From an uncultured Clostridia bacterium (lineage in GTDB: Bacteria; Bacillota; Clostridia; Monoglobales; Monoglobaceae), in assembly GCA_947631965.1 (NCBI GenBank), contig CANRNL010000006.1, positions 7,263 to 71,262 on the forward strand: DNA of 64,000 nt, read 5' to 3'. Made by a program: the position numbers and the translations under genes. Below the pieces are notes generated by a model that was given only the letters and a program-made list of their open reading frames with translations, was not told the DNA's origin and ran no database searches. Of this stretch, positions 14,415 to 60,250 are shown in pieces; the first letter of the stretch is position 1; the number at the start of each line of letters is the position of its first letter.

Positions 14415-14863
14415 GCGCCGAAAACGGCGGATTTTTTCGAAGACCTTGCTATGCAAGGTCTTCTTATTTTACCGCCGTTTTCGGCGCTCTTTCGCAAAAA
14501 GCGCAAGTCGCTTTTTGCGAGATTACGCGGCAAAGCCGCGTTTTTTTATTTTTTTCAAAGTTCGCTTTGCTCCGACTTTTTTGCGCTTTGCGCGTTGGTG
14601 CGTCGAGGGCGCCGCACCCTACATCGTCGCGACACGCCCTTTTTGCTTGCTTTGCCCCATTCGGGCAAAGGCGCGCTTTCGGGCGGTCGCTTCGAATGAA
14701 CACTTAATGAGCAAGCTATATGCTTGCGAATTTAGTGTGAATTGTGCCCTGTTGGGTACTCTTTCCCAAAAAGCGCAAGTCGCTTTTTGGGAGCCCTGTA
14801 AAATTATAACAAAAGGATAGCACGCCCATTTGGTTGTACGGGACGGCGCCATCGACGTCCCGT
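14415..14863. repeat. modular hairpin-rich non-coding repeat tract (locus A), same family as 45499..46376 and 58965..58995
   Basis: Shares near-identical modules with locus B: AAAAGCGcaagtCGCTTTT hairpins; AGATTnCGCGGC...GCCGCG; CAAAGTTCGCTTTGCTCCGAC; CCCTACATCGTCGCGACACGCCCTTTTTGCTTGCTTTGCCC.ATTCGGGCAAAG; TCGAATGAACACTTAATGAGCAAG...GAATTTAGTGTGAATTGTGCCC.GTTGGGTAC; and CCATTTGGTTGTACGGGACGGCGCC.TCGACGTCCCGT. Short ORFs occur in every frame on both strands, with no coding signal. Confidence 0.85.
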
Positions 14864-14943
14864 CTTATGTAAAATATTTGTAATTTTAATATCGATATTT
14901 TGTAAAAGTCAGGTTTGACGGCGTAAACGGCAAATTTGCCGCA

Positions 14944-20296: not shown

Positions 20297-20349
20297 TTTC
20301 TGTTTCGCAGACGCGAAAACGTGAAAATTTAAAATAAGGAGTTTTAAAA

Positions 20350-22677
20350 ATGAGGAGAAGAATTACGGCGGCGGTGCTGACTTTGGCTATGCTCATTTTG
20401 ACAGTGCCGGCGGCGGTCTTTGCGGAGGAGGATTATGCGACGCGCGGCGAGGTTTGCGATATGCTTCTTATTGCCGCGGACGACTACAATGCAGGGGTTG
20501 AAAAGACGGATATATTACAGGGCTATGAGGACGGTCAGCTTCACGAGGATTGGGGCGTGACAAGAGCCGAAGCGCTGGTTATGCTCAGGCGTGCGTTTGG
20601 CGAAATCCCCGAAATTAAAGGCTCGAATAAATATATTGCGTTTCCCGCCGAGACGTTCACCGATATTCCCGAGTGGGCTAAGACCGAGCTTGCGGACGTG
20701 TTTGACGCGGGAATAGTCGCGGGCAAGTCAGAGGGCATATTCGCGCCCGACGACAACGTGACGACCGACGAGATGAAGCTGTTTATACAGCGTATGTACC
20801 GCGTGTTTGGCACAAACCTCAAGGATGACTATTATCAGACAATTAATCACGACGCGCTTGACAGCGCCGTTATCCCCGAGGGAAAAAGCGTCACAGGCAC
20901 CACACATGGCGATCGGGTCAGCGGGCAGCTTAAAGCTGTTGTAAAAGAAGCGGCATCTTCAAATCCCGACAAGAACTCAAAGGCGGGCAAAATCAAGACG
21001 ATTTACGACAACTATATGAACAAAGAGGCGAGAAACGCACAAGGCTATGAGCCGATAAAGCCGTACCTCGACGAGATAGACGCGGTAAAGAGCGTCTCGG
21101 ACTTTGTAGGCACCGAAGCGATAGATGCTTTCGCGAGATTCCAAATTACGATTGATCAAAAGGACTCGACCAAATATATAGATATTTTTGTCACCCCGTC
21201 GATAAACACAAAGGATATGTACGAGGGAAAGAACGAAAACGCAAAAGAGGCGTATCTCAAATATGTCACAAAGCTGTTTTCCCTTATAGGTTACAGCGAG
21301 GCTGACGCCAAAGCTGCGGCGGACACCGTGTTTGATTTGGAGACTCAAATAGCCGAGGCAAGCCTTTCGCTCCCCGATACCTATGATATAAACAAAACAT
21401 ACAACATATACACGCTTGATGAAATATGCGCGAAGTTTAAAAACATTGATATTGAAAAGGTGTTTGAAAACAGCGGCTTTAAGCTCAAAGACAGATTTAT
21501 GGTTTTCGATGCGGGCGCGATGGAAAAGACGGCGGAGCTGCTTGACGACAAGAATATCGACGCCTTAAAGATTTACGCCAAATTCGCGCTGCTTAGCAAT
21601 AGCGTTCAATATCTGAGCGAGGATTTTGAAAACGCGGAGGATGAATACAACTCCGCGGTTATGGGCATTCAGGGAACCCTCGATGATGAGACGAAGGCGG
21701 TAAGCTGCATAGACAGCCTTGTTCCGGACTATCTTGGCGAGCTGTACAGCGACAAATATGTTGATGAGAAAACCAAGACCGACTTGACCGAAATGATAAA
21801 AGGTATGATCGAGATTTACCGCGAGAGGCTTGAAAACAACGATTGGATGGGCGAGGCGACAAAGCAAAAGGCGATAAAAAAGCTTGACACCATGGGTATA
21901 AAGGTCGGCTGCCCCGACGAGTACGCCGAGGTCTCCCTTGACTCCAAGGACATAAGGAGCTATGACGAGGGCGGAAGCCTCATTGAAAATATGATGACGA
22001 TAGGCGAGGCGAAGGAAGAAGACATGATAGCCAAAGAAGGCACTGTGGTAGACCGCAGTCAGTGGGCAGCGACTCCGCAGACGGTAAATGCTTTCTATGA
22101 CCCTTCGTTTAATGATGTGACAATTTGCGCGGGATTTTTGCAGGTGCCCGGAGTATACGGTACCGACGCCCCTTATGAGAGCAACCTGGGCGCCATAGGC
22201 ATGGTCGTCGGTCACGAGATCAGCCACGCGTTTGACAACAACGGCGCGCAGTATGACGAGAACGGAAACGCGGTGAATTGGTGGACTGATGAGGACGCGG
22301 CGGCGTTTGACAAGCTGTGTCAAAACGTTATAGATTTCTATGACGGCTACGAGGCGGCGCCGGGAATTGCTATGAACGGAGAACTGACTCTTACCGAAAA
22401 CACCGCCGATATGGGCGGCTTGTCGGTTGTGGTCGAGCTTGCGTCAAAGACCGAAAATTTTGACTATAAGCAAATGTTTGAAAGCTATGCCAACCTTCAG
22501 TTTAGCGCGGCGTATCGCGGTTATTTACAAATGTGTGCGACGGGCGACGTCCACAGCCTTCCGAGCGTCCGCGTGAACAGACTGTTTGAGACCTGCGACA
22601 AATTCTTCGAGACCTACGGCATCACCGAGGGCGACGGTATGTGGGTAGCTCCTGAGGACAGAGTTTCGATTTGGTAA
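20350..22677 (+). CDS. secreted M13 zinc metallopeptidase with N-terminal SLH-like repeats, copy 2
   Basis: Same architecture as copy 1: VVGHEISHAFD, TENTADMGG. The start lies exactly 2381 bp after the copy 1 start. Confidence 0.92.
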   Translation: MRRRITAAVLTLAMLILTVPAAVFAEEDYATRGEVCDMLLIAADDYNAGVEKTDILQGYEDGQLHEDWGVTRAEALVMLRRAFGEIPEIKGSNKYIAFPAETFTDIPEWAKTELADVFDAGIVAGKSEGIFAPDDNVTTDEMKLFIQRMYRVFGTNLKDDYYQTINHDALDSAVIPEGKSVTGTTHGDRVSGQLKAVVKEAASSNPDKNSKAGKIKTIYDNYMNKEARNAQGYEPIKPYLDEIDAVKSVSDFVGTEAIDAFARFQITIDQKDSTKYIDIFVTPSINTKDMYEGKNENAKEAYLKYVTKLFSLIGYSEADAKAAADTVFDLETQIAEASLSLPDTYDINKTYNIYTLDEICAKFKNIDIEKVFENSGFKLKDRFMVFDAGAMEKTAELLDDKNIDALKIYAKFALLSNSVQYLSEDFENAEDEYNSAVMGIQGTLDDETKAVSCIDSLVPDYLGELYSDKYVDEKTKTDLTEMIKGMIEIYRERLENNDWMGEATKQKAIKKLDTMGIKVGCPDEYAEVSLDSKDIRSYDEGGSLIENMMTIGEAKEEDMIAKEGTVVDRSQWAATPQTVNAFYDPSFNDVTICAGFLQVPGVYGTDAPYESNLGAIGMVVGHEISHAFDNNGAQYDENGNAVNWWTDEDAAAFDKLCQNVIDFYDGYEAAPGIAMNGELTLTENTADMGGLSVVVELASKTENFDYKQMFESYANLQFSAAYRGYLQMCATGDVHSLPSVRVNRLFETCDKFFETYGITEGDGMWVAPEDRVSIW

Positions 22678-22730
22678 TGCCCGTTTTGCGGACGAGAAAA
22701 TGTGAAGATTTAAAATAGGAGGTTTTAAAA

Positions 22731-25061
22731 ATGAGAAGAAGAATTACGGCGGCGGCTCTGGCTTTGGCTATGCTTATTTTAACAGTGCCGGCGGCGGTCT
22801 TTGCGGAGGATGATTATGCGACGCGCGGCGAGGTGTGCAATATGCTTCTCGCCTCGGCGGACGACTACAATGCAGGGGTTGAAAAGACGGATATATTACA
22901 GGGCTACGAGGACGGTCAGCTCCACGAGGACTGGGGCGTAACAAGAGCCGAAGCGCTGGTTATGCTCAGGCGCGCGTTCGGCGAGATACCCGAGATAAAA
23001 GGTGCAAACAAATACATAGCCTTTCCCGCCGAGACGTTCACCGACATACCCGACTGGGCTAAGACCGAGCTTTCGGACGTGTTTGACGCGGGAATAGTCG
23101 CGGGAAAGTCAGAGGGAATATTCGCGCCCGACGACAACGTGACCAAAGACGAGATGGAGCTTTTTATACAGCGTATGTACCGCGTGTTCGGCACAAATCT
23201 CAAGGACAACTATTATCAGACCGTTAACCTCGACGTGCTTAACAGCGCCGTTATCCCCGACGGAGAACTCAGCATGGGCACCCTGTCCGGCCTTGAGGTG
23301 CAGGATCAGATCAAGGACATCGTAAAGAACGTGGCCGCGTCAGATCCCGACAAAAACTCAAAAGAGGGAAAGATCAAGACGCTCTACGACAACTACATGA
23401 ACAAAGAGGCGAGAAACGCCCAGGGCTATGAGCCGATAAAGCCGTTTCTTGACGAGATAGACGCTATGAAAAGCGTTTCGGATCTTGTAAACTGCAAGGA
23501 GGCGATGGATATTTTCGCGAGATTTGAGGTCGGATATGATGACAAGGACTCAACTCATTACGCCGATTATTTCTCGACTCCGACGATAAACTCAAAGGAA
23601 ATGTATGAGGGAAAGGACGAAAATCGAAAAGCGGCTTCTCTGAAATACAAGGCGTCTCTCTTAAAACTGATCGGCTACAGCGAGGCCGACGCCGAAGCCG
23701 CGGCCGACAGAGCGTTTGATATAGAGAAACAGATCGCCGAGGCGAGCCTTTCGCTTACCGATACCGATGATATAAACAAAACATACAACATATACTCGCT
23801 TGATGAGATATCCGCTCTGTTTAAAAACATTGATATAAACAAGGTGTTTGAAAACAGCGGCCTTAAGAATAAGGACAGATTTATTGTTTCCGACGTCGGC
23901 GCGATGAAAAAAACAGCCGAGCTGCTTGATGATAAGAACCTTGAAGCGATCAAGGACAGCGCGAAGATCAATATTCTCTCAAGCTACAGCATATATCTGA
24001 GTGATGACTTTCATAATGCGTATAAGACGTTTACTTCCGAGGTTTACGGAATTCAGGGAGAGAGCGACGACGAGACCGACGCGATTGACTGCATTGACGG
24101 TCATCTTTCGGATTATCTCGGCGAGCTGTATACCGATAAGTATATGGACGAGAAAACAAAGACCGACGTTACCGAGATTATCAAAGACATGATAGACATC
24201 TACCGCGAGAGAATACAAAAGCTTGACTGGTTGAGTGACGCGACGAAGCAGAAGGCGATAAAGAAGCTCGACACCATGGGAATAAAGGTCGGCGGCCCCG
24301 ATAAGATCCCCGAAACGACCTTAGACAGCACAGAGCTTAAAAGCTACGCCGACGGCGGCAGCCTCGTTGAAAACATTATAGCGATCAATGACGCCGCCGA
24401 GAAAGACGAACTTAAGAACGAGGGCGGAGAGGTCGACCACAACGAGTGGGTAATGTCGCCCCAGACCGTGAACGCCTGCTACAATCCCAGCTTTAACGAT
24501 ATTACCATCACCGCCGCGATATTGCAGATACCGCACACTTACAGCTCAAGCGCCTCATATGAGGAAAATCTGGGTGGAATAGGAATCGTTATCGGCCACG
24601 AGCTCAGCCACGCGTTTGACAAATACGGCTCTCAGTTCGACGAGAACGGAAACGCGGTGAACTGGTGGACCGACGAAGACGCCGCGGCGTTTGATGAGCG
24701 CTGCAAAGCGGTTATCGACTTCTATGACGGACAGGAGAGCGCGCCCGGCATCACCACAAACGGAGAGCTGACTCTTACCGAAAACACCGCCGACATGGGC
24801 GGCCTGTCGGTGGCGACGGAGCTGGCGTCAAGAAACGAGAATTTTGATTACAAAAAGATGTTCGAGACATGGGCGCAGCTCTGGTTGGATGTTTCCTACC
24901 GTCAGTATCTTGAACAGCTAAGCATGATTGACGTGCACAGCGCGGCCGAGGTTCGCGTGAACAGACTGTTTGAGACCAGCGACAAGTTCTTCGAGACCTA
25001 CGGAATCACCGAAGACGACGGAATGTGGGTAGCTCCCGAGGACAGAGTTTCGATTTGGTAA
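22731..25061 (+). CDS. secreted M13 zinc metallopeptidase with N-terminal SLH-like repeats, copy 3
   Basis: Same architecture as copies 1 and 2: VIGHELSHAFD, TENTADMGG. The start lies exactly 2381 bp after the copy 2 start. Confidence 0.92.
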   Translation: MRRRITAAALALAMLILTVPAAVFAEDDYATRGEVCNMLLASADDYNAGVEKTDILQGYEDGQLHEDWGVTRAEALVMLRRAFGEIPEIKGANKYIAFPAETFTDIPDWAKTELSDVFDAGIVAGKSEGIFAPDDNVTKDEMELFIQRMYRVFGTNLKDNYYQTVNLDVLNSAVIPDGELSMGTLSGLEVQDQIKDIVKNVAASDPDKNSKEGKIKTLYDNYMNKEARNAQGYEPIKPFLDEIDAMKSVSDLVNCKEAMDIFARFEVGYDDKDSTHYADYFSTPTINSKEMYEGKDENRKAASLKYKASLLKLIGYSEADAEAAADRAFDIEKQIAEASLSLTDTDDINKTYNIYSLDEISALFKNIDINKVFENSGLKNKDRFIVSDVGAMKKTAELLDDKNLEAIKDSAKINILSSYSIYLSDDFHNAYKTFTSEVYGIQGESDDETDAIDCIDGHLSDYLGELYTDKYMDEKTKTDVTEIIKDMIDIYRERIQKLDWLSDATKQKAIKKLDTMGIKVGGPDKIPETTLDSTELKSYADGGSLVENIIAINDAAEKDELKNEGGEVDHNEWVMSPQTVNACYNPSFNDITITAAILQIPHTYSSSASYEENLGGIGIVIGHELSHAFDKYGSQFDENGNAVNWWTDEDAAAFDERCKAVIDFYDGQESAPGITTNGELTLTENTADMGGLSVATELASRNENFDYKKMFETWAQLWLDVSYRQYLEQLSMIDVHSAAEVRVNRLFETSDKFFETYGITEDDGMWVAPEDRVSIW

Positions 25062-42384: not shown

Positions 42385-45225
42385 ATGAAAGGCATTAAAA
42401 AAGTTTTGAGCGTTGTTCTCGCAGTCGCTCTGCTTATGACAAGCCTTGTTGTAACCGCTTCGGCAAGCGCGTTCCCCGACGTTGACGACAACGCGAGTTA
42501 CGCAAACGCGGTTTCGGTCCTCAGCAAGCTCGGAATCATAAAGGGCTACGCGGAGGACGGCACGTTTAAGCCCGAGAACGACGTTACTCGTGCTGAATTT
42601 ACTGCGATGCTTATGAGAGTACTCAATGTTGCGCAGGACGACACAACCGTTTGGGCGGATTCACCGTTCTATGATTTGTCGGACGCGACATGGGCTATCG
42701 GAAATATCCGCACGGCTTACGGTATGGGTATTATCAACGGCTACGGAGACGGTACATTCAGACCGAACGACAATGTTAAGTATGAGGAAGCATTAAAGAT
42801 GATTGTCTGCGCCCTCGGTTACGGTCAGTATGTCAGCAACGACGGCGCTTCATGGTACACCGGATATTATACTCAGGCAATGACGCTCGGAATTACGAAC
42901 AACGTGAACGGTACGCTGGAAACCAACGCAACGCGTTCCTGCATAGCTCAGCTCATATTCAACTCTCTTGAGGTTGATATAATAGAGAACAACACCGTTT
43001 CGGGCAAGACGCTTTTGGACTATCTCGGTCTTATAAAGAACACGGGCAGAATTTCGGCGAACAACGACACAAGCATTAATTCGCCCGATGTTAACCTTGC
43101 GGCAAATCAAGTTGAGATTTACGCCAAGGATGAGGGTTCCTCGGAGTATACCACAAACGTATATACGACAGACGATACCAGCATAAAGAATTTGCTCGGA
43201 TATCAGGTAACTTTCTACTACAGGTTAAACCGCGGAACAAACGAGAGAGAGCTTATTCTCGCCGAGACGAGGTCGCCCAAGGAACTCACCATAGATGCTA
43301 ATCTTCTTGAGATTAACGACTCGACCAATACCTCGATTAGATATTATCAGGATTTGAACGCCGAAAGGACGTCGTCCGTTTCGCTTTCAAACGACAATAT
43401 AGTAATTTACAACGGTAAGCTCTACGGTGCGAACGCCGAGGCAAGCCGATTTACAAAGGATATGCTTCCCAAAATCGGAAGTGTAAGGCTTGTTGACTCC
43501 GGTTCGAGCGGTTCATACAATATGGTATTCATAGAGAGCTATATTCCCTATTATGTATCCTCCATATCGGCTTCGACCAAATCGATTACCGATACCCTCA
43601 CAAGACCCGCTACTTTTAAAGAAAAGACGGTGGAGCTTGACGAGGATTCGTCGGATTACACACTCTCTATCGTTGACGCGGACGGAAAAGCAATGAGCTT
43701 CAGCTCTATCTCAAGGGGCGATGTTGTAAACGTCAAGGAAAGCAGAAACGATAACGGCGGCACGGTTCTCAAGACCGCGGTCGTTACCGACGAAAAAGCG
43801 TCGGGCTCGGTTACTTCGATAAGCAAGGACGTTATTGTTGTGGGAGGAAAGGCTTATGATTGCTCGCCGTACGCTCCTTGGGAGATGTACGATTCGGCAA
43901 CGGCTACTCTTGCGGCTCCGTCGGTCGGCGACAACGCCACTTATTCGCTTGATATAAACGGAAACATTTTTGCATATGAAAAGACCGCGACAAGCAGCAA
44001 CGTATCTTACGGATACATTATGGCGGTCGGCACGGGAATGGTTGACAATGTGGACACGCTCCGCATTTATATGCTCACCATGTCGAGCAAAAAAGAGGAG
44101 ATGGACGTTTACACGACTTTGAAGCTCAACGGCAAGTCGTATAAGCCGGCGTCTCAGATGAACGAAATCCTCGACGCGCTTGCGCTTTCGGCAGCCGACC
44201 AGAATCAGGATGTCGGCGCTTCGGGTGCGCAGTACACCCAGCTCGTTAAATATGAAACGCGTTCCGACGGCAAGATAAGCAGTATTGTTACCGCGAATTT
44301 GGTATCTCAGCCCACGAATATAACTACCGATTCGCTTTCGCTCTATGATGGAATCGGCGGCGTTTCGATGTCCTGCAACTCGAATAAGCAGCTTTCGGGC
44401 AACGGCATCACGATAAGCACGAGTAGCGCGGCGGTATTCGTTGTTCCGACGAACAGACAGGATTTTGATTCTTATAAAAAGTCGTCCTCGACAGAGTTCA
44501 AAAGCGGTAACTCTTATGCAATTGATGCGTATGACCTTTCTTCGAGCAGAAGCGCGGCGGCAATCGTTCTTTACGGCAAGGATGCTTCAGAGGCGGTTGA
44601 TACCGAAACGCCCGTATATCAGATTTCCGAGGTTTACTCGACGTCTGTTGACGGCGAGACCAGAATGAAAGTAAGAGGAACGATGTTCAGGTCAGGTTAC
44701 TCATCCGGCACGACAGACTTTGATGAGATTGTTTCAACAAGGTCTGAAAGTTTGGTAGAAGACCTTTCGGAAGGCGACCTTGTGAGATTCGGCAGCGATA
44801 CCGAAGGTTATCTCTCGCTTGAAAGTGAGGATATACTTTGGACAAACGGTCAGGACGGATATATTACGGTGGAGGACTCCAATCCGGCAGTAGACCCGTA
44901 TTCGTCCGAGTTTGTCGCGATATACGGCAGCGTTCTCTATGCCGACAGCGGAGACGATATAGTTCTTACCAAAGAGCTTATTAACGGAAGCTACTCCGGC
45001 GACAAGGAATACACGATTGCAAGAAACGATTTCTCCTCTGCAAAAGCGTTTATCTACAGATTGGATAATAACGGCAGAGTTTCGGAAATAATTGAAGAAG
45101 GCAGTGACTTCCTTGACCTGCTTTCGCCTTACGGCAACGCGGAGAACTTCGACCCGAGCAAGGTCTTTGTATATATGTCGAAGGGCAGAGTTAAGGCAGT
45201 CGTGATATTTGAATATGAATATTGA
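42385..45225 (+). CDS. S-layer-like surface protein: signal peptide, three N-terminal SLH repeats, roughly 750-aa unknown region
   Basis: Signal peptide ending TASASA; FPDVDDNASYANAVSVLSKLGIIKGY..VTRAEFTAML and two further SLH repeats. Paralog of 2636..5641 and 53049..55991. Confidence 0.9.
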   Translation: MKGIKKVLSVVLAVALLMTSLVVTASASAFPDVDDNASYANAVSVLSKLGIIKGYAEDGTFKPENDVTRAEFTAMLMRVLNVAQDDTTVWADSPFYDLSDATWAIGNIRTAYGMGIINGYGDGTFRPNDNVKYEEALKMIVCALGYGQYVSNDGASWYTGYYTQAMTLGITNNVNGTLETNATRSCIAQLIFNSLEVDIIENNTVSGKTLLDYLGLIKNTGRISANNDTSINSPDVNLAANQVEIYAKDEGSSEYTTNVYTTDDTSIKNLLGYQVTFYYRLNRGTNERELILAETRSPKELTIDANLLEINDSTNTSIRYYQDLNAERTSSVSLSNDNIVIYNGKLYGANAEASRFTKDMLPKIGSVRLVDSGSSGSYNMVFIESYIPYYVSSISASTKSITDTLTRPATFKEKTVELDEDSSDYTLSIVDADGKAMSFSSISRGDVVNVKESRNDNGGTVLKTAVVTDEKASGSVTSISKDVIVVGGKAYDCSPYAPWEMYDSATATLAAPSVGDNATYSLDINGNIFAYEKTATSSNVSYGYIMAVGTGMVDNVDTLRIYMLTMSSKKEEMDVYTTLKLNGKSYKPASQMNEILDALALSAADQNQDVGASGAQYTQLVKYETRSDGKISSIVTANLVSQPTNITTDSLSLYDGIGGVSMSCNSNKQLSGNGITISTSSAAVFVVPTNRQDFDSYKKSSSTEFKSGNSYAIDAYDLSSSRSAAAIVLYGKDASEAVDTETPVYQISEVYSTSVDGETRMKVRGTMFRSGYSSGTTDFDEIVSTRSESLVEDLSEGDLVRFGSDTEGYLSLESEDILWTNGQDGYITVEDSNPAVDPYSSEFVAIYGSVLYADSGDDIVLTKELINGSYSGDKEYTIARNDFSSAKAFIYRLDNNGRVSEIIEEGSDFLDLLSPYGNAENFDPSKVFVYMSKGRVKAVVIFEYEY

Positions 45226-45279
45226 TTTCCTATAAGTAAGATAAGTAAGGAAATTAACGATTGATAACGGTTATAATTC

Positions 45280-45319
45280 GGCAACGGCATAGCTTCGGCT
45301 ATGCCGTTGCCTTGTTTGT
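45280..45319 (+). terminator. rho-independent terminator
   Basis: GGCAACGGCATAGC-ttcg-GCTATGCCGTTGCC followed by TTGTTTGT. Confidence 0.8.
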
Positions 45320-45363
45320 ACGGCTGCCGAATGTGCGGTTTTAATAATTTTTGAAATTTACTA

Positions 45364-45392
45364 TTGCAAAGGAGAAAAATTTGTGGTAAAAT
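45364..45392 (+). promoter_or_regulatory. promoter of tRNA-Leu(CAA) (TTGCAA - 17 bp - TGgTAAAAT)
   Basis: Hexamers at 45364..45369 and 45387..45392, about 19 nt before the tRNA. Confidence 0.65.
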
Positions 45393-45411
45393 AACCAAGT
45401 ATTTGAAATAT

Positions 45412-45498
45412 GCCGCTGTGATGGAATTGGCAGACGTAGCGGACTCAAAATCCGCCGGTAGCGATACCGTGCCGGTTCGACTCCGGCCAGCGGCACCA
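45412..45498 (+). tRNA. tRNA-Leu (anticodon CAA), type II, encoded CCA
   Basis: Acceptor GCCGCTG/CAGCGGC; anticodon stem GCGGA/TCCGC with loop CTCAAAA; long variable arm CGGTAGCGATACCGT; T arm GCCGG-TTCGACT-CCGGC; 3' ACCA. Confidence 0.9.
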
Positions 45499-45910
45499 GC
45501 GAAACGGCAAGCCTTTTGTGCTTGCCGTTTTTTCTTTTGAAAAAACGGGCGCGCTTGCAGGCTGCCGTTTCGCTTTCCCGAAAAGCGCAAGTCGCTTTTC
45601 GGGAGATTGCGCGGCTTCGCCGCGGTTATTTCTATTTTTGCAAAGTTCGCTTTGCTCCGACGAATTTTTTTGCAAAAAATCCGTCTTTCGCCCGCTTCCT
45701 TGCTCCTTCGAATGAACACTTAATGAGCAAGTTTTATATGCTTGCGAATTTAGTGTGAATTGTGCCCCGTTGGGTACTTTTTCCCAAAAAGTCTTTAGGA
45801 CTTTTTGGGAGCCCTATGGGAGCGGCTTTTAACGCCGTTTTCGGCGCGCTTGCAGGCTGCCGTTTCGCTTTCTTTTCTTGCTATCAAGAAAAGAATATAT
45901 CCCCGCTCAT
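45499..45910. repeat. modular hairpin-rich non-coding repeat tract (locus B, unique-order part)
   Basis: Contains the same modules as 14486..14790 in a partly different order. See the findings for the alignment landmarks. Confidence 0.85.
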
Positions 45911-46376
45911 GCGGAGCGTGGGCATTGCGGGCGAACAAGGTTCGCTCCCTACATCGTCGCGACACGCCCTTTTTGCTTGCTTTGCCCTATTCGGGCAAAG
46001 TCGCGCTTTTGAGCGGTCGCTCCTCTCCGACAAAAATCTGTGGATTTTTGTCGGTTAAAATAAATAAATTGTCCCCATTTGGTTGTACGGGACGGCGCCC
46101 TCGACGTCCCGTGCCCGCGCGGAGCGCGGGCATTGCGGGCGAACAAGGTTCGCACCCTACATCGTCGCGACACGCCCTTTTTGCTTGCTTTGCCCTATTC
46201 GGGCAAAGTCGCGCTTTTGGGCGGTCGCTCCTCTCCGACAAAAATCTGTGGATTTTTGTCGGTTAAAATAAATAAATTGTCCCCATTTGGTTGTACGGGA
46301 CGGCGCCCTCGACGTCCCGTGCCCGCGCGGAGCGTGGGCATTGCGGGCGAACAAGGTTCGCCCCTACATTGTCGCA
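45911..46376. repeat. tandem repeat, 208-bp unit, about 2.2 copies
   Basis: GGCATTGCGGGCGAACAAGGTTCGC starts at 45921, 46129 and 46337, an exact 208-bp period. By eye, units 1 and 2 differ at about three positions. Each unit holds at least five hairpins. Confidence 0.95.
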
Positions 46377-46611
46377 ACTCACGCTTTTCGAGAGTTATTA
46401 TACGACTTTTGGCGGTGCGCTTGCGGATTTGCTTTGCGGATTTCGGCGGCATATCAAGCCCCGACGCGGGGACTGATTTTTTAAAAAATATTTTTTCTGT
46501 ACAGCTTGCACAAAAATTATTCCTAAATTTATAAAAACTTCAAAATTTTTGTATAGAATCACTAAAAATCGCTCAAATTGAAAAATATTTTTTTAAGGCT
46601 TTTTTTACTTA

Positions 46612-46640
46612 TTGACAAATGGATATTTTAATTATATAAT
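46612..46640 (+). promoter_or_regulatory. promoter (TTGACA - 17 bp - TATAAT) with a roughly 90-nt leader for the giant SLH-lyase operon
   Basis: Consensus hexamers at 46612..46617 and 46635..46640. RBS AGGAGG before ATG 46739. Confidence 0.65.
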
Positions 46641-46738
46641 TGTATATGTATGAAAATAGGTGTTGTATGTATTCGACTATATACAACGTCTGTATTTGTT
46701 TTGTAAAATTATATAAATTTATAATAGGAGGTTACATA

Positions 46739-49700
46739 ATGAAAGGGAAAATGAGCAGAAGTTTATTTTCACTGATACTCGCTGTTTGCTTTATGCTTCA
46801 GGGCGTTTATGTTACGGCGTTTGCCGATGACGCGCTCTCTGCCGAGGAACAGCAGGATGAGCAGGAAGTCTCATTCGCTGTCGATTCAAACGGTGAGTAT
46901 GTTGAACTTGGCGACGATTTCGACTATGATGCCGAAACGCAGGGAGGTTTTGAAGAGGTCGACAGCGAGGCGTTCTTTGATTACAGCGGCGATGTAAGTC
47001 TCTTCGACGCCGATACCACCAAGGGTACGCTGGTAGCGTCCGCCAACTTTCAAAATTCGGCGGTAGGAGATACGGCGGTTGACGGTTGGCTTTTTAACTG
47101 CGTTCCGGAAGAAGGAGGAAACGCGAGTACCATTCAGGTAATCAGCGACACCGAAAACGGTGGCAACGTACTTGAACTGTCAAAGAAAGCCAACGGGGTT
47201 AAAAACGGTGATTATGCTGCCGGAGACGAGCGTGTATCGGCGGAATTTCCGATTGAGGGCGTTTCGGGTAAGATTGTCATTGTTGCGGAAGTGAAGATGA
47301 CCCAGACCGGTCGTCTCGGTATGTACACGTTCTCGTCTATTGACGAAACGACCGGAGTGCCGGCATATGGCGGACGTTTTTATTCGTGGGATACAGCTGC
47401 CGAAAAAGCTGACCCCACTAAAACAGAGCCGCTCAGATATACCGCTTATGATAGCAAAAGCACCCCAAATAAGGTTGAGAGTACCACCAGCCCCAAGAGT
47501 AAGGACTCTTCGGCGAAAATGACCAAGAACAAGTGGTACACTTGGCTGTTTGATATGGATTATGACAACGGCACTTATGATGTTTATATAGACGGAGAAT
47601 GTTTGTTTGAGGGACTTGGAATTACCGGCTCTCAAAACGGCTTCGGCGGTGTGGGCTTTGAAATTCAGAACGATATAAAGTCACTCGGAACCATGCTTGT
47701 AGGCTCTTTTGCCGTTTACGATATGAACGAGGCGGCTCAGAACGATGAGAATGCAAACGCGGATGCTGCGGCTTTGCAGCTCGGTATTGACGCAAACATG
47801 GTTACCGAAAGCTTTACTGTTCCCACAAGCGGACAGTACAACAACTCGACGATTACATGGGAGTCGTCTAACACGGCGGTTGCTTCTATAGTTCCGCGAG
47901 ATGATAAAACGGCTCTTGTTACGATTACCAGACCCGAATACAGCGGCGCCGGAAAAGTCAATGTAACGCTTACGGCAAACGTTGCGAGCGGCAAATCGGT
48001 CGTTCAAAAACATTTTACCATTACGGTTTACGAAAAGGAACCCGAAAATGATGGAGATAGGGTTCAGGTTGACGTGGACAGTCTTTCGCTTCCTCCTTCG
48101 GTGCAGGGTAATATTACCGAAGGCTTTACGGTTGACACGAAAGGCGCTGTTTGCGGCTCCGAGATTACCTGGGAATCGTCAAATCCGTCTGTCGTTTCGG
48201 TAGACAACGCTACCGGCAATGTTACGGTTACACGTCCGCCGTTTGACGGCAACGGCACGACTGTGGTCACTCTTACCGCTACCGTAAAGAGCGGCAGTGC
48301 AAGAGTTACCAAGACGTTTACGGTTACGGTTGTTCAGCTTGACCCCGCCAACGACACCGAAAAGGCACAGTATGCGGCGAGAATGTTGTTTATCGGCGGT
48401 ATCGATGAGGACAACATCAAACTTGAGAGCTTCTATCTTGCGGACACCGGACTTTATGATTCGTCAATTTCATGGGTATCCTCAAATGAGAAATACATTG
48501 AAATAGATAACAATTATGAGGAAGACCCGGAAACCGGAAATCAAACTCAGGTTGATGGCTACAGAGCGAAGGTTACCCGTCCTGCGGTAGGACAGGCGCC
48601 TGTTTCGGTTACTCTTACGGCTACAGTAAATGTAAACGGGGAGATTTCAACAAAGGATTTTGTACTTATGGTACAGCCGGAAGACCAGCTTAAAGCATTC
48701 CCCGGTGTTGAGGGTTACGGTGCATACTCAACAGGCGGCAGAGGCGGCAGAGTTTACCATGTTACCAACCTTAACGCAACGGGCGAAGGAAGTCTTACTT
48801 ATGGTATTGAGGAGCTTAAAGGTCCCAGAACGATAGTATTTGATGTTGCGGGCGTTATAGATATGACGAAGCGCGGCGCAGGAATCAAGTTCAAGGGTGA
48901 GCAGGGCTCCAATGTAACGGTTGCGGGTCAGACCGCTCCGTTCCCCGGAATAGAGCTTAAAGGCTACGGCGTTACTTTCTCGAACGTACATGATGTAGTA
49001 TTCAGAAATATAAGAATTCGTATAGGCGACACCAAGCCGGATAATGACGTTTATCAGGAAGACCCGATGAGCATAGGAAACTGCCGTGACTTGGTAGTTG
49101 ACCATTGCACGATGCAGTGGGCGATAGATATGTGCTTCCGTGCAACGGGTTCGGACGTTACTTTGTCGAACATAATATTCGGCAAGTCGCTTCTTGAAAA
49201 CTCGCCTCACGAAAAAGGCGGTCACGCTTACGTCGGAATGATAAACGAGGGCGCGAGCAAGATTTCGTTCATTAAGAACTTCGTCGGAGACAGTACACAG
49301 CGTTCGCCGCGTATTACCGACGCCGACTGGATTGACGCATACAACAACGTCCTCTTTAACTCCGGTAACGGCTTCGATATTTACAACTACGAGTGGCAGG
49401 ACAAGAACTCGAAGATGAACGTATATAATAACTACGCGAGAAAGGGTCCGAACGTATTGAACGGTACACCGTACCGTGCGGGCCGCGGACGAAACTACTC
49501 CGGCGGCGCGATGGTTTACTTCGTTGAAAACTATGGTCAGGGCTCGAATGACACTCTCCAGCAGACCGCTACAAACGAGAACACTTCTTTTGCTAAGGTA
49601 CTGTATTTCGGTCAGGAAAATACGAGCGCGGGTGCAGCGTATGACCTTTCAAACGTAACGCTTGATGAGTGGAACAACAACCCGCTCTCATATGACAACA

Positions 49701-56008: not shown

Positions 56009-56042
56009 GCCAAAGCCGAACGTTATGTGTTCGGCTTTTGGC
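56009..56042 (+). terminator. strong hairpin between operon genes (partial terminator or RNA-processing/stability element)
   Basis: GCCAAAGCCGAAC-gttatgt-GTTCGGCTTTTGGC. There is no clean downstream U-tract, so termination is uncertain. Confidence 0.45.
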
Positions 56043-56082
56043 AGAATTAAATAAGGTTTTAAAAGCGAACGGAGGTTTGGAA

Positions 56083-58809
56083 ATGATAAAAAAATGCAGG
56101 TTTTTAGCCGGCTGTTTGACGCTTTCAATGATTTTTGCAAGCGCGGTACCCGCCGTTTTCGCGGAGGATGCGGCTGTGTCTGAGGACGAAACGACGGTTG
56201 TGGAAGCGGTAGATGAAATCTCTGACGAAGCTGTCGTTGATGAAGCGGTCGTTGACGAGAGCGAGGAAGTTGACGTCCTTTCGGAGGACGATGCGGATGT
56301 TTCGGTAGCGGCTGTTGATTACAGCGCGTGGGTTAAGGGCGATGCAAATGCTAATGACAACAGTCCCGGCGCTATCACGCCGAACGTTGAGTATAACGGC
56401 AAAGACGCGCTCTACATTGAAAACAGAAACGCATACACCGTTTTCCCTGAGCCTGTTACGGAGGGCAAAGTCACCTTTTCGCTGGATTTGTATCTCGAAA
56501 AGGGCGCAAGAAACTTCAGAGTTTATTTTGAAAATGCAGAGTCAACCTATACTAATAAAGACAATGTTTTTGCCGAGGTTATAAACAACGACAAAGAGGG
56601 CGCTGTTTACTTCGGACCCACGACTGAAGCTCATACTGACAACGCGCACAAGCTGTTTGACATTACGTCGGACGGCTGGTATCACTTTGATTTGGCTCTC
56701 GATTACGGTGAGCTTCAGGACGGCAGCGTTAGTGATAAATTTATCACAATAAATGCGACCGACGCAAACGGCAATCCGATGTGCGAAGAAATGACCATCG
56801 GTGCAATCAGCGGCAAAGATGTTTCTTTGAAGTCAATTCGTATAGTAAAGACCGTGAGCGGACTTTATGCCGCTAATATGACAATAGAGCAGGGCGGCGA
56901 TATGATTTTTGCCGAGAGCAGCAACTTTGCGGATGCGGAGCTTGGCGATAGCAATATCCCCTCTAACTGGACTATATCGGCGGGCGGCAACAATAAGGGC
57001 GAAATAGTTAATGATGACGAAAAGGGTCACGTCCTTATGCTTCAAAAGAATTATGACGACGATGAGCAGACAACTTCGAAAAGCGCTGTGTTTGCAAGAT
57101 ATAAGCTGAACAAGACTTACAGCGGCAATACCGAGATTGAGGCTGATATTAAGCTTACTTACGGCGGCAGAATCGGTATGTTCGCGGCAAGTCAGTCAAG
57201 CGAGACAAGCACATCTACTCTTTCCCCGAGACTTTTTGCTTGGAGTGATAATGATTTCCCGAGTATTTGCAATCACTATGAGGCGTATAACCCGACGAGC
57301 GCATCTTCGTCTAACAGAAATAAGAATAACGCGGTTCCTCCGATGAATACGTGGACGACATGGAAATTTGTCATAAACGGAAACGCGCTTACCTATGATG
57401 TATATATCGACGGTAATTTGATGTTCGAGGGGTTGAACGCGCAAAGTGATATGTTCAACGGAAATGTAGGTCAGGTAGGCTTCCAGATTCAGAGTGCGGA
57501 GGGTACTCTCGGAACCATTCTTGTTTCGGAAGTAAGAGTTTATAACGACTCTATTGTTGACCCCGAAAAGGAAAAGGCAAAAATCAACGCTGCGCTTGAC
57601 GGGATAACTCTTCCGACCGAGACAGCGGGTGAAGACATCATACTTCCCACTCAGGCGGCAGGACACGATATAGTATGGACGTCAAGCAATCCCGATGTTA
57701 TAGCTAATATCGGTGGTATCGGACGCGTTGTTCGCAAGGACTCCGTTATAGGAGACGTAGAAGTAGTTCTCACGGCTACCGTAACATATGAGGATATGAT
57801 TATCACGCGCGAATTTACGGTTAAGTCGATAGACAACCGTGACACGGATTCGCTTGTTAAGTCGCAGATTTTGACCGACCTTATGGACCTTGGTCTTACC
57901 AACGGCGAAACTCTTTACTCTGATATAGAGCTTCCCACCGTCGGCAGAACTTACGGCACGAAGATTTCCTGGATAACCAGCAACGCGTCGGTTATCTCGG
58001 CAAAAGGTAATGTTAAACGTCCTAACGTAATCGGCGCAAAGACGGTTACGCTGACCGCTGTCGGTGAGCTTGAAGGCACTAACGGACCCGTTAAGGAAAC
58101 ATATGCTTATACATTTAAGGTTGTCGGCAGAGGTTCGAGCAGCGTATCGAGCGGAGGCGGCGGAGGCGGATTTGTTGCCTATTCGCCGGGAACACCAACG
58201 AGCAACACCACTTCCACGGCTGCGCCGTCGGGCAACACGACGGACGAAAACGGAAACGGTACACAAGGCACGAGCAGCGTCGGATTTACAGACCTTGACA
58301 ATGTCGGCTGGGCTCAGGAGGCAATAGACTATATGTTCTCTAAGGGCTATGTTAACGGCGTTGGCGACGGAAAGTTTGCTCCGAACGATGCGGTAACGCG
58401 TGAGCAGTTCGTTAAGATGCTCGTTAACGTATTCGGTCTTGAGGCGGCTTCCGACAGTGCGGCATCGTTCTCGGACGTACAGCCCGGAGCTTGGTATGCA
58501 GAGTATGTAAATATTGCGGCAAGCCTCGGAATTGTTTCGGGTATGGGCGACGGCAGTTTTGGCGTAGGCACTCCGATTTCAAGACAGGATATGGCGGTTA
58601 TGATTGCCCGCTGCACCAATGTTGAGGGCGGCGACGCGGCAGAGTTCGCGGATGATTCGGCTATTTCCGACTATGCGGCGGACGCGGTACACGCTATGAA
58701 ATCGGCAGGTTATATTTCGGGCGACGAGAAAGGCAACTTCAACCCGAAGAACACCGCTACCCGTGCAGAAACCGCAACTGTTCTTTACAGAATTTCGGCA
58801 GGCAAATAA
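56083..58809 (+). CDS. 908-aa surface protein: signal peptide, acidic spacer, two LamG-like modules, two short Ig-like repeats, Gly/Ser/Thr linker, 3 C-terminal SLH repeats
   Basis: The start is moved to MIKKCRF after GGAGG. The module ending [53 protein letters not shown] parallels [50 protein letters not shown] in the 2107-aa protein. SLH tail: [42 protein letters not shown]... Confidence 0.88.
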   Translation: [908 protein letters not shown]

Positions 58810-58964: not shown

Positions 58965-58995
58965 TTTGTACGGGACGGCGCCCTCGACGTCCCGT
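58965..58995. repeat. solo copy of the ACGGGACG-GCGCCCTCGA-CGTCCCGT hairpin element
   Basis: TTTGTACGGGACGGCGCCCTCGACGTCCCGT is identical in its core to 46084..46112 and 46292..46320, and one base different from 14835..14863. Confidence 0.9.
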
Positions 58996-59019
58996 CCGCG
59001 TATAAGGCAAAAAATATTT

Positions 59020-59052
59020 AAAAAACAAAAATGCCCGCGTGGAACGCGGGCA
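59020..59052 (-). terminator. rho-independent terminator of the aminotransferase operon
   Basis: TGCCCGCG-tggaa-CGCGGGCA, with a minus-strand T-run from the A-tract at 59020..59031. Confidence 0.8.
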
Positions 59053-59074: not shown

Positions 59075-60250
59075 TTATTTTAATTCTTCAATAAACTCAC
59101 CTATTCTGTCAAGTGCAACCTGTATATCCTTTACCGAATACGCGTAGGAACATCGTATGAAGCCCTCGCCGCTATCTCCGAAGGCATTTCCCGGCACAAC
59201 CGCTACTTTTTTTGAATAGAGTAGTTTTTCGCAGAAATCGTCGCTGTTTAATCCGGTTGAGCTTATGTTGGGGAAGCAGTAGAACGCGCCGAGCGGCTCG
59301 AAGCAGTGAAGCCCCATTTTATTAAAGCCGTCCACTATCATACGTCTGCGTCCGTCGTACTCCTCGCGCATCATCAAAATGTCGTCGTCGCCGTTTCGGA
59401 GCGCCTCTATCGCCGCGTACTGCGCGGTGGTGGGCGCGGACATTATCGCAAACTGATGCACCTTGGTCATAGCCTTAATAATATCGGGACAGCCGCAGGC
59501 GTAACCGAGCCTCCAGCCGGTCATCGCGTACGCCTTTGAAAATCCGCTCACTATTATGGTTTGGTCGTACATACCGTCGATTTCGGCTATCGAAATATGG
59601 CGGCTTTCGCCGTATGTAAGCTCGGCGTAAATCTCGTCCGAAAGCACAAAAATATCCTTGTCGCGTATTACCTCCGCGATTTCCTCAAGGTCTGACTTCT
59701 CCATAATCGCGCCGGTCGGGTTGTTCGGAAACGGCAGAACCAAAACCTTTGTATTCGGCGTTATCGCGGCGCGAAGCTCGTCCGCTTTCAGCCTGAAATT
59801 ATTTTCCTCTTTAAGCACTATCGGCACCGGCGTACCGCCCGCCAAACTCGTGAGCGGGGCATAGCACACAAAGCTCGGCTCCGGTATCAGCACCTCGTCG
59901 CCCTTTTCCAAAACGGTGCGCAAAAAGAGGTCTATCGCTTCGCTGCCGCCGACCGTAACAAGCACCTGGCTTAGTCCGTCGTACTCAAGATTGAAGCGGC
60001 GGCGCATATAGTTTGCAATCTCAATGCGAAGCTCTTTGAGTCCCGCGTTGGCGGTATAGTGCGTGTATCCCTTTTCGAGCGTGTATATACCTTCGTCGCG
60101 GATATGCCACGGGGTCACAAAGTCAGGCTCTCCCACGCCGAGCGAAACCGCGTCTTTCATTTCGGACGCAATTCCGAAGTATCGGCGTATGCCCGAAGGC
60201 TTTATGCCCGAAACCACGTCGTTTATATATTCCTTAGGAGGTTTCGTCAT
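59075..60250 (-). CDS. class I/II PLP-dependent aminotransferase (AlaT/YugH-like)
   Basis: 391 aa. IKPSGIRRYFGIASEMKDAVSLGVGEPDFVTP...SGFSKAYAMTGWRLGY (PLP lysine motif SKAY). Confidence 0.9.
   Translation of the reverse strand: MTKPPKEYINDVVSGIKPSGIRRYFGIASEMKDAVSLGVGEPDFVTPWHIRDEGIYTLEKGYTHYTANAGLKELRIEIANYMRRRFNLEYDGLSQVLVTVGGSEAIDLFLRTVLEKGDEVLIPEPSFVCYAPLTSLAGGTPVPIVLKEENNFRLKADELRAAITPNTKVLVLPFPNNPTGAIMEKSDLEEIAEVIRDKDIFVLSDEIYAELTYGESRHISIAEIDGMYDQTIIVSGFSKAYAMTGWRLGYACGCPDIIKAMTKVHQFAIMSAPTTAQYAAIEALRNGDDDILMMREEYDGRRRMIVDGFNKMGLHCFEPLGAFYCFPNISSTGLNSDDFCEKLLYSKKVAVVPGNAFGDSGEGFIRCSYAYSVKDIQVALDRIGEFIEELK

Follow-up and report, generated by a model that had tools for sequence, protein, structure and literature searches.

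What fills the gap of about 1240 bp behind the tRNA-Leu(CAA) gene of an uncultured Clostridia bacterium, and is it junk, mobile DNA or a set of functional sites? The gap lies in a 64,000-nucleotide stretch of contig CANRNL010000006.1 (assembly GCA_947631965.1, positions 7,263 to 71,262), here called the window, whose own numbering is used throughout. By our analysis the genome is Acutalibacteraceae-like. The tRNA gene occupies 45412-45498 on the + strand (ARAGORN; Rfam RF00005, 49.7 bits), and the next credible start codon is the ATG at 46739, which has an AGGAGG ribosome binding site and a promoter. An earlier reading made from the letters alone (the sequence-only reading) had given the gap this extent, and had described it as a non-coding mosaic of hairpins that resembles repetitive extragenic palindromic (REP) sequences and bacterial interspersed mosaic elements (BIMEs), or that encodes small RNAs. 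Our analysis indicates that the tract is probably a BIME-like cluster of REPs and accessory palindromes. It is BIME-like by architecture and mechanism, and membership in the classical REP family is not proven.

The tandem array at 45911-46388 comprises two full units and a 62-bp third copy (self-BLAST, 96.3% identity over 271 nt). Tandem Repeats Finder (TRF) reports a period of 208 bp, 2.2 copies, 97% matches and a score of 891 for positions 45911-46375. The landmark GGCATTGCGGGCGAAC occurs exactly at 45921, 46129 and 46337, and the two full units differ only at positions 45946, 46012 and 46127. Both TRF and the comparison of units therefore agree with the array as it was first described, and the five hairpins listed in that description are all present as perfect stems of 8 to 12 bp. 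The window contains 37 perfect hairpins with a stem of at least 8 bp, 13 of them in 45499-46400 and five in 14439-14863, behind a second tRNA-Leu gene. RNA folding z-scores for 45532-46470 are -10.9 on the + strand and -14.1 on the - strand, and the DNA folding z-score of one 208-bp unit is -5.55. Hairpin density and folding are far above chance.

Each 208-bp unit contains two REP-type hairpins in opposite orientation, here called A and F, together with lineage-specific palindromes called D-H, G and K. The order of modules in the array is A(-), D-H, G, F(+), K, given twice and followed by A(-) and D', with an AT spacer between G and F(+) in the 208-bp unit. The alternation of A(-) and F(+), separated by fixed linkers within a unit repeated 2.2 times, is the arrangement by which BIMEs are recognized. 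The window holds five copies of F or its variant F' and three copies of A, at three loci; these copies are intergenic and dispersed, yet few.

The F hairpin (46085-46112, + strand, with a second copy at 46293-46320) has the form GTAC-GGGACG-GCGCCCTCGA-CGTCCC-GT. A scan of 185,579 representative genomes for its exact pattern found eight loci in seven metagenome-assembled genomes (MAGs) of uncultured Clostridia or Acutalibacteraceae. At four of these loci (L001, L004, L005 and L006, where L numbers denote sequences from other genomes) the hairpin is located within a gene for a protein of about 180 aa. The F-carrying proteins match the NCBIfam model REP_Tyr_transpos (NF047646) with E values of 1e-15 to 1e-16, at a score under the curated cut-off, and also match Pfam Y1_Tnp. 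Their sole PDB match is E. coli TnpA-REP (4ER8), a REP-associated tyrosine transposase (RAYT). Look-ups of GTAC-type RAYTs (P0100 and P0107) led to other samples and not to the source organism. Three further RAYT loci were examined. At L095 and L096 the same F hairpin is found inside the gene and just past its stop codon, and at L094 the gene is flanked by related GTAG hairpins and encodes VRDGAHDVP in frame. F is found in frame twice in, and just outside, the RAYT-like genes of L001, L004, L005, L006, L095 and L096. In all, seven related-genome loci have a RAYT that carries or is flanked by a REP, and this association was seen for F and not for A.

The stem of F also covaries. A generalized F pattern with two free stem positions per arm yielded an unbiased set of 31 matches in IMG/VR contigs, and both free pairs are Watson-Crick complementary in 29 of these, in four combinations, where about two complementary cases would be expected by chance. 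The foot of the F family, over 58 copies, is GTAG in 40 and GTAC in 15. F is also a GC-rich palindrome with a maintained structure, as is usual for REPs, and its stems in the window are perfect. Because the stem covaries and the hairpin occurs within or beside RAYT genes, F is, judged by sequence, a REP-type hairpin with a cognate RAYT family.

The F-linked RAYT family has 723 homologues with E values below 1e-10, and its open reading frame (ORF) carries its own REP as an inverted in-frame pair at two fixed positions. The sequence GTAGGGGACGGCGCCCTCGACGTCCCC translates to VGDGALDVP, and its reverse complement to GTSRAPSPT. In-frame motifs of the forms VG(D/G)GAxD(V/A)P and GTS(K/R/W)APSPT are kept in nearly all of 120 aligned homologues (protein set P0001-P0120). 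The residue pairs that the stem encodes are G...A in 61 cases and D...V in 45, with no G...V or D...A and five other single variants. This near-perfect covariation of residues implies that the DNA hairpin has been preserved throughout the family. F-linked RAYT genes are located at L001 5620-6159, L004 6899-7435, L006 7716-7177 (- strand), L095 1161-1643 and L096 342-824.

The A hairpin is found on the - strand as GTAG-GGGCGAAC-ctt-GTTCGCCC, with the GTAG foot and 8-bp GC-rich stem of a canonical REP. A search of public sequences gave 70 matches to this foot and stem in 49 contigs, and some of these matches, in Clostridia-like contigs, sit in arrays of different GTAG hairpins at a spacing of about 60 nt. 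A scan of viral contigs for the exact A hairpin gave no match. Another RAYT subfamily is predicted to encode A-type REPs, as VGANLVRP and GRTRFAPT. Only the third copy in the array (46345-46367, - strand) is intact. The copies in the first and second units (45929-45952, - strand, with its foot at 45949-45952; and 46137-46160) are chimeric, and consist of the left arm and loop of A fused to the GC(A/T)CCCTAC end of an F'-type REP. Compared with L008, the syntenic locus of a sister species (rabbit-gut MAG Lapin-004 bin86), the chimera equals a 57-nt deletion over the shared CCCTAC foot.

Other REP types were seen in relatives. In one array with A matches (L056 1300-2300, - strand), GTAG hairpins with the stems GGGCGGCA, GGCGGGGCC and GGGCGAAC each occur after CGTCATCCCTC. 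L001 contains a separate REP type, GTAG-GGGCGACC..GGTCGCCC, at 7527/7553 and at 940, including an inverted doublet. These cases suggest that several REP types are present per genome in these Clostridia.

The remaining modules of the unit are palindromes of other kinds. D-H (45956-46020 and 46164-46228) is a long imperfect hairpin of about 65 nt that includes CTTTGCCC-tattc-GGGCAAAG, and further copies occur at 14613-14691 and in L008 and L092. G (46027-46054 and 46235-46262) has a 12-bp AT-rich stem, CCGACAAAAATC-tgtg-GATTTTTGTCGG, and further copies in L002, L008 and L092. K (46112-46132; GCCCGCGC-gga-GCGCGGGC) is made at the junction of units, and is imperfect at the second junction (46320-46340).

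The left part of the tract is composed of further modules. M1 is a 30-nt exact direct repeat (45548-45577 and 45843-45872; self-BLAST). M2 (45573-45661) comprises a 12-bp hairpin at 45576-45604, a GC hairpin at 45610-45624 and GCAAAG-ttcg-CTTTGC; it is 85% identical to 14489-14576, and variants of M2-type hairpins show the compensatory changes TCCCG/CGGGA, TCGCA/TGCGA and TCCCA/TGGGA. M3 (45662-45705) has two copies in the orthologous tract of L008 and none in the tract behind tRNA-Leu(GAG). M4 (45706-45791) is 94% identical to 14690-14773; it is missing from the equivalent place in L008, as an inserted or deleted module would be. The M5 hairpin (45782-45810) has a 12-bp stem, TCCCAAAAAGTC-tttag-GACTTTTTGGGA, with two copies in L008 and one in L092. 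An AT-rich hairpin of 11 bp (45870-45895) is found in this tract only.

The architecture suggests how the tract might have arisen. The REPs may be, or may once have been, substrates of a RAYT-type HUH/Y1 enzyme that acts on single-stranded hairpin DNA, and such action would lead to dispersal to other intergenic sites and to a conserved foot and loop. The mosaic would have been reshaped locally by recombination between repeats. A deletion over the shared CCCTAC foot could have produced the chimeric A copies. The 2.2-copy array could be the recent product of slippage or unequal exchange, with two direct A-containing segments of about 35 nt, 208 bp apart, as the partners; this would account for a duplication with three differences in 208 nt. 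In the sister species, an event of the same type presumably duplicated another segment, of 218 bp. The modules appear to be under sequence constraint and not to be drifting junk, perhaps because a RAYT or another DNA-binding protein recognizes them, or because they serve as back-up terminators.

The comparison with L008 bears directly on constraint. Between the window and L008, identity is 84% in the flanking genes and 86-90% in the promoter and leader that precede the next gene. It is 88-98% in the modules, with 175 of 178 positions shared over the D-H-G-F block (98.3%), whereas it is only 63% in the adjacent module-free spacer (46372-46485), which serves as a neutral yardstick. The G stem, the F stem and the inner 8-bp H stem are invariant across copies, and the loops vary. 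Paralogous copies of modules behind different tRNAs are 93-96% identical. Because orthologous copies are closer than paralogous ones, homogenization within a genome does not explain this conservation, and either purifying selection or recent exchange between species is needed.

Module arrangement is far less stable than module sequence. The L008 tract has the same modules in another order: the D-H-G-F block is present once, a different segment of 218 bp (M5-M1-M2-M3) is duplicated in tandem, and the 3' hairpin of M2 with a T-run directly follows the tRNA, where the window has a terminator. L087, a sister-species contig, agrees with L008 (95.8% identity) as far as the final base of the tRNA and then diverges from it. 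Beyond that point L087 has the terminator of the window type, and its tRNA with the first 41 nt beyond (128 nt) is 99% identical to the window. This split at the tRNA end suggests that the tract is structurally polymorphic at about the strain level. Exact-protein look-ups found the same strain only (99.99% identity), and no synteny was found in the species whose U32 peptidase is 71% identical.

Mosaics of this kind recur elsewhere. The tract behind tRNA-Leu(GAG) (14415-14865) consists of a terminator, M2, F'(-), D-H, M4, an M2-type hairpin and F(+) at 14836-14863. Its F' variant (14597-14622, - strand) has a compensated stem, GGTGCG/CGCACC. The sequence-only reading had noted that the left part shares modules with this tract, and the shared modules are 85-97% identical over 14467-14863. 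A third mosaic is present in L092 (positions 1-480; ENA ERZ27249252 NODE_21438), which comes from one of the ENA samples that also yield the sister species. It contains M5, M2, D-H, G, half of F and D', with the half-F and D' fused as GTACGGGACGGCGCC joined to CTACATCGTCGCAAC, and it directly follows a tRNA-Ser-like 3' end and a terminator. The identity of this truncated tRNA, for which ARAGORN made no call, was read by eye from its last 55 nt or so. Mosaic tracts thus lie behind three different tRNA genes, each after a first terminator. Proximity to tRNA genes is not exclusive, so the proposal of a consistent position 3' of tRNAs stands as a preference. An isolated F (58966-58995) and a K-like hairpin (59032-59052; TGCCCGCGT-gga-ACGCGGGCA), detected by self-BLAST and a hairpin scan, lie between the convergent genes 56038-58809 (+) and 59075-60250 (-), with no tRNA nearby. 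F, G and K-like hairpins are found in a non-tRNA gap of L002, and single F copies occur at gene ends in other contigs.

The modules therefore recur in the window (14467-14863 and 58966-59052) and in other contigs, as a family of elements should. Searches in other collections returned little: a metagenome scan for the D module gave no matches, as did scans of viral contigs for the M2 hairpin core and the D/H module, and no match scored when the tract was translated in all six frames and searched at the protein level for copies called as ORFs.

Several observations weigh against reading the tract as a BIME-like cluster of REPs. D-H, G, K and the AT spacer, which make up about 75% of each unit, do not resemble REPs, nor does most of the left part. 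None of this sequence shows a tie to a transposase, and the non-REP modules have been seen in this lineage only, with few known copies. The REP/BIME interpretation proposed at first is thus supported for A and F, and not for the remaining modules, which make up about three quarters of the unit and most of the left part. Copy number is low as well. REPs are expected in tens to hundreds of copies, a number not seen here; the exact F pattern occurs at most twice in any representative genome, and the exact F was found once, as an isolated copy, in JGI metagenomes. The foot of F is GTAC in the window lineage and not the canonical GT[AG]G. The unit, at 208 bp, is far longer than that of E. coli BIMEs, and the stems of A and F differ, so that they form no joint hairpin of the kind known as a REPIN. 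The search for a RAYT that the sequence-only reading had suggested gave a divided result: the 64-kb window contains neither a RAYT gene nor a pseudogene, and F-carrying RAYT genes are present in related genomes. Finally, mobility alone does not readily account for an identity of 98% between species, which hints at a further function.

This last point leads to a stronger version of the idea that the tract is functional. It is conceivable, though we consider it unlikely, that the modules are a lineage-specific family of structured elements that colonizes, or is kept behind, tRNA terminators in Acutalibacteraceae and has an active function. If so, the 94-98% identity of modules across species and paralogous tRNA loci, against 37% divergence in the spacer, would reflect that function. 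Such a family could be a system that depends on a RAYT and targets the 3' flanks of tRNAs, or an insulator based on protein or RNA. It would also provide the first REP partners of a Clostridial RAYT family whose ORF encodes an inverted pair of its own substrate.

The transcriptional layout, as inferred from consensus scans, constrains the alternatives. A promoter-like site precedes tRNA-Leu(CAA) (45364-45392), and a predicted intrinsic terminator follows it (45501-45531, + strand), with a 12-bp stem and the T-run TTCTTTTG, and parts the tRNA from the mosaic. tRNA-Leu(GAG) likewise has its own promoter-like site, and a terminator with an 11-bp stem and a T-run (14439-14463). At the other end, a TTGACA-17-TATAAT sequence (46612-46640, + strand) is a perfect match to the sigma-70 consensus. 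It is predicted to drive the gene that starts at 46739, which encodes a 2107-aa protein with SLH and Ig domains, and it marks the functional end of the gap. No sigma-70-like promoter was found on either strand inside 45532-46470. The mosaic is thus predicted to have the tRNA terminator on one side and the next promoter on the other. A 16-bp hairpin followed by a T-rich run (46656-46693), in the 5' leader predicted for the SLH/Ig-domain gene, is conserved only partly in L008, and could be a leader attenuator.

The position of the tract allows for the explanation that the modules are selected cis-acting sites in DNA or RNA, unrelated to transposition, that form a stack of terminators, roadblocks or protein-binding sites and insulate the downstream gene from read-through of a strongly transcribed tRNA gene. 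The mosaics at all three tRNA genes lie past a first terminator, and 11 terminator-like sites were found in 45200-46800 (three of them outside the tract), compared with 3.0 expected. Also, the 3' hairpin of M2 with its T-run directly replaces the terminator in L008, and the conservation of modules (88-98%, versus 63% in the neighboring spacer) is what selected sites would show. However, most of the hairpins lack a T-run, and the order, copy number and presence of modules vary between sister strains, which one would not expect of a tuned insulator. F, K and G are also found at places other than tRNA loci, and the link of F to RAYTs would be left unexplained. We therefore regard an insulator as quite unlikely.

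It is less probable still that the tract encodes one or more structured small RNAs, or a functional 3' trailer that is co-transcribed with the tRNA. The predicted structure is very strong, conservation of the D-H-G-F block is high, and substitutions in D-H-G are somewhat rarer at paired sites (4/64) than at unpaired ones (7/42), a difference that is suggestive only. Against these points, the structure is equally strong on both strands, and mismatches, as read by eye, have no consistent G-U strand bias. The Rfam gathering thresholds admit the two tRNAs only. With E values up to 10, the best non-tRNA match in 45300-46800 has 20 bits, and the best in the tract behind tRNA-Leu(GAG) has 30.3 bits, versus a gathering score of 76, so no Rfam family, CRISPR repeats and IS605/HEARO-type RNAs included, matches the tract. 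The lack of an internal promoter-like site, the strong terminator between tRNA and tract, and the variable arrangement in sister strains are also unfavorable. The sequence-only reading had suggested that the tract is co-transcribed with the tRNA or takes part in tRNA 3' processing, which is not borne out by terminators with stems of 12 bp and 11 bp directly after the two tRNAs. Its option of encoded small RNAs fares no better, given the absence of an Rfam match, of an internal promoter and of strand bias.

Because tRNA 3' ends are classical integration sites, the gap could also be a decayed integrative element, but this is very improbable and for this window largely refuted, since no partial copy of a tRNA-Leu 3' end (up to three mismatches in 20 nt) occurs in the window, neither an integrase nor a remnant of any other gene was found, BLAST of the tract against plasmid and phage records gave no similarity, and the same modules lie behind different tRNAs. 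The observation in its favor comes from a more distant relative. In L091 (16300-16790, - strand), tRNA-Ser(GGA) is followed by a terminator, then about 200 bp on by a second tRNA 3' end with a terminator, and then by several GTAG-footed hairpins. This duplication of a tRNA 3' end looks like the att-type footprint of an integrated element.

Several other candidates were considered and rejected. A hammerhead-like core in M4 (CTTAATGAG...CGAA) has no Rfam support, and key core bases differ. A CRISPR array (20 bits versus a threshold of 42) was rejected on this score and on the absence of spacer structure. By our own reading, an integron attC site does not fit the R''/R' consensus, and no integrase is present. 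An att-type duplication of a tRNA end was rejected because neither tRNA-Leu 3' end recurs in the window. Matches of the RAYT hidden Markov models to the tracts, which might suggest a RAYT pseudogene, are confined to the 9-10 residues that the hairpin itself encodes.

The tract is non-coding, in agreement with the first reading. A Pfam search of six ORFs across both tracts gave no match. A HMMER search with a spurious 153-aa ORF of the tract had two matches, one to an unrelated low-complexity repeat protein and the other to P0242, a 163-aa protein as which the L092 tract had been gene-called. The single frame that can be compared, between P0242 of L092 and the window, has seven nucleotide changes that cause six amino-acid changes, a ratio that indicates a frame that is not coding. 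Public ENA annotations include a 196-aa 'gene' at 45129-45719 (- strand). It has no Pfam match, overlaps the end of an SLH gene, runs antisense over the tRNA and reaches into the mosaic, and it is almost certainly spurious. Elsewhere in the window, three tandem paralogous genes (17969-25061) encode proteins of 775-776 aa, and a 12-nt repeat motif, GCGGGAATAGTT, is found at matching places in the first and third of these genes.

Such tracts also have practical consequences. Contigs L010, L011 and L087 end inside the tract or at its start (at window positions 46001, 45914 and 45539, respectively), which shows that mosaics of this kind break short-read metagenome assemblies and suggests that such regions are under-represented in MAGs. 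They also yield spurious ORF calls, as with the 196-aa 'gene' over the tRNA and P0242.

To our knowledge, work on REP/RAYT systems has dealt almost entirely with Proteobacteria. This locus provides a concrete case from Clostridia, in which REP-type hairpins are tied to a large RAYT family. The hairpins form part of a mosaic whose arrangement changes from strain to strain, yet the modules are conserved far above the local neutral level. With this combination, it can be tested in a gut anaerobe whether REP clusters are junk, mobile DNA or functional sites. The tract is a recognizable kind of bacterial repeat cluster, and is unusual mainly in that its modules are conserved above the surrounding DNA. 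What remains of most interest is the combination of a structure that turns over fast, a sequence conserved at about 98% and a preference for the 3' flanks of tRNAs.

Among known systems, the pneumococcal BOX elements (boxA-boxB(n)-boxC) are intergenic mosaics of hairpin-forming modules in a Gram-positive organism, with one module repeated in tandem in variable number. We know of no transposase for BOX elements. They resemble the tract in being modular mosaics, and two of the modules in the tract are REP-like; the likeness is one of architecture, and no relation in sequence was looked for or seen. The distal region of tyrT in E. coli has a 178-bp unit repeated 3.14 times after tRNA-Tyr, and each repeat contains a copy of the tRNA 3' end. 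The tract shares with it a tandem repeat of about 200 bp directly downstream of a tRNA gene. Unlike tyrT, it has no copy of the tRNA 3' end, at up to three mismatches in 20 nt, in the repeat or at the far end.

The BIME-2 elements of E. coli, with [Y-s-Z2-S] tandem units, show more extensive parallels. Like the tract, they are composed of GC-rich imperfect palindromes with a GTAG-type foot, and two REP types of alternating orientation are joined by fixed linkers. Tandem amplification involves the whole unit, at a variable copy number, and the elements are located in intergenic 3' regions. BIME-2 elements are linked to a RAYT of the Y1/HUH type, and the family linked to F matches both 4ER8 and NF047646. 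The tract differs in the 208-bp length of its unit, three quarters of which is other palindromes, in its few copies, in the GTAC foot in the window lineage and in its Clostridia host. Also, the cognate RAYT is seen in related genomes and not in the window.

In the REPIN-RAYT systems of Pseudomonas (Bertels and Rainey; PMC3337134, PMC5581495), as in the system described here, REP hairpins are tied to a single-copy, vertically inherited RAYT, and the repeats are conserved for long periods. REPIN-like inverted REP doublets occur in relatives, at L007 7216-7291 and inside RAYT genes. In contrast to REPINs, A and F in the window have different stems and cannot pair, and copies number tens at most, not hundreds.

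REPs within tnpAREP genes have been reported for RAYT subclass 2.4 only, as in-frame insertions, and no REPs were found for subclasses 2.1 and 2.3, the former of which includes Clostridia (Quentin et al. 2018; PMC6006769). The F-linked RAYTs resemble subclass 2.4 in having a REP in frame inside the gene. Unlike subclass 2.4, they have two inverted copies at fixed positions in nearly all 120 members, and these in-frame REPs encode the conserved peptides VGDGALDVP and GTSKAPSPT.

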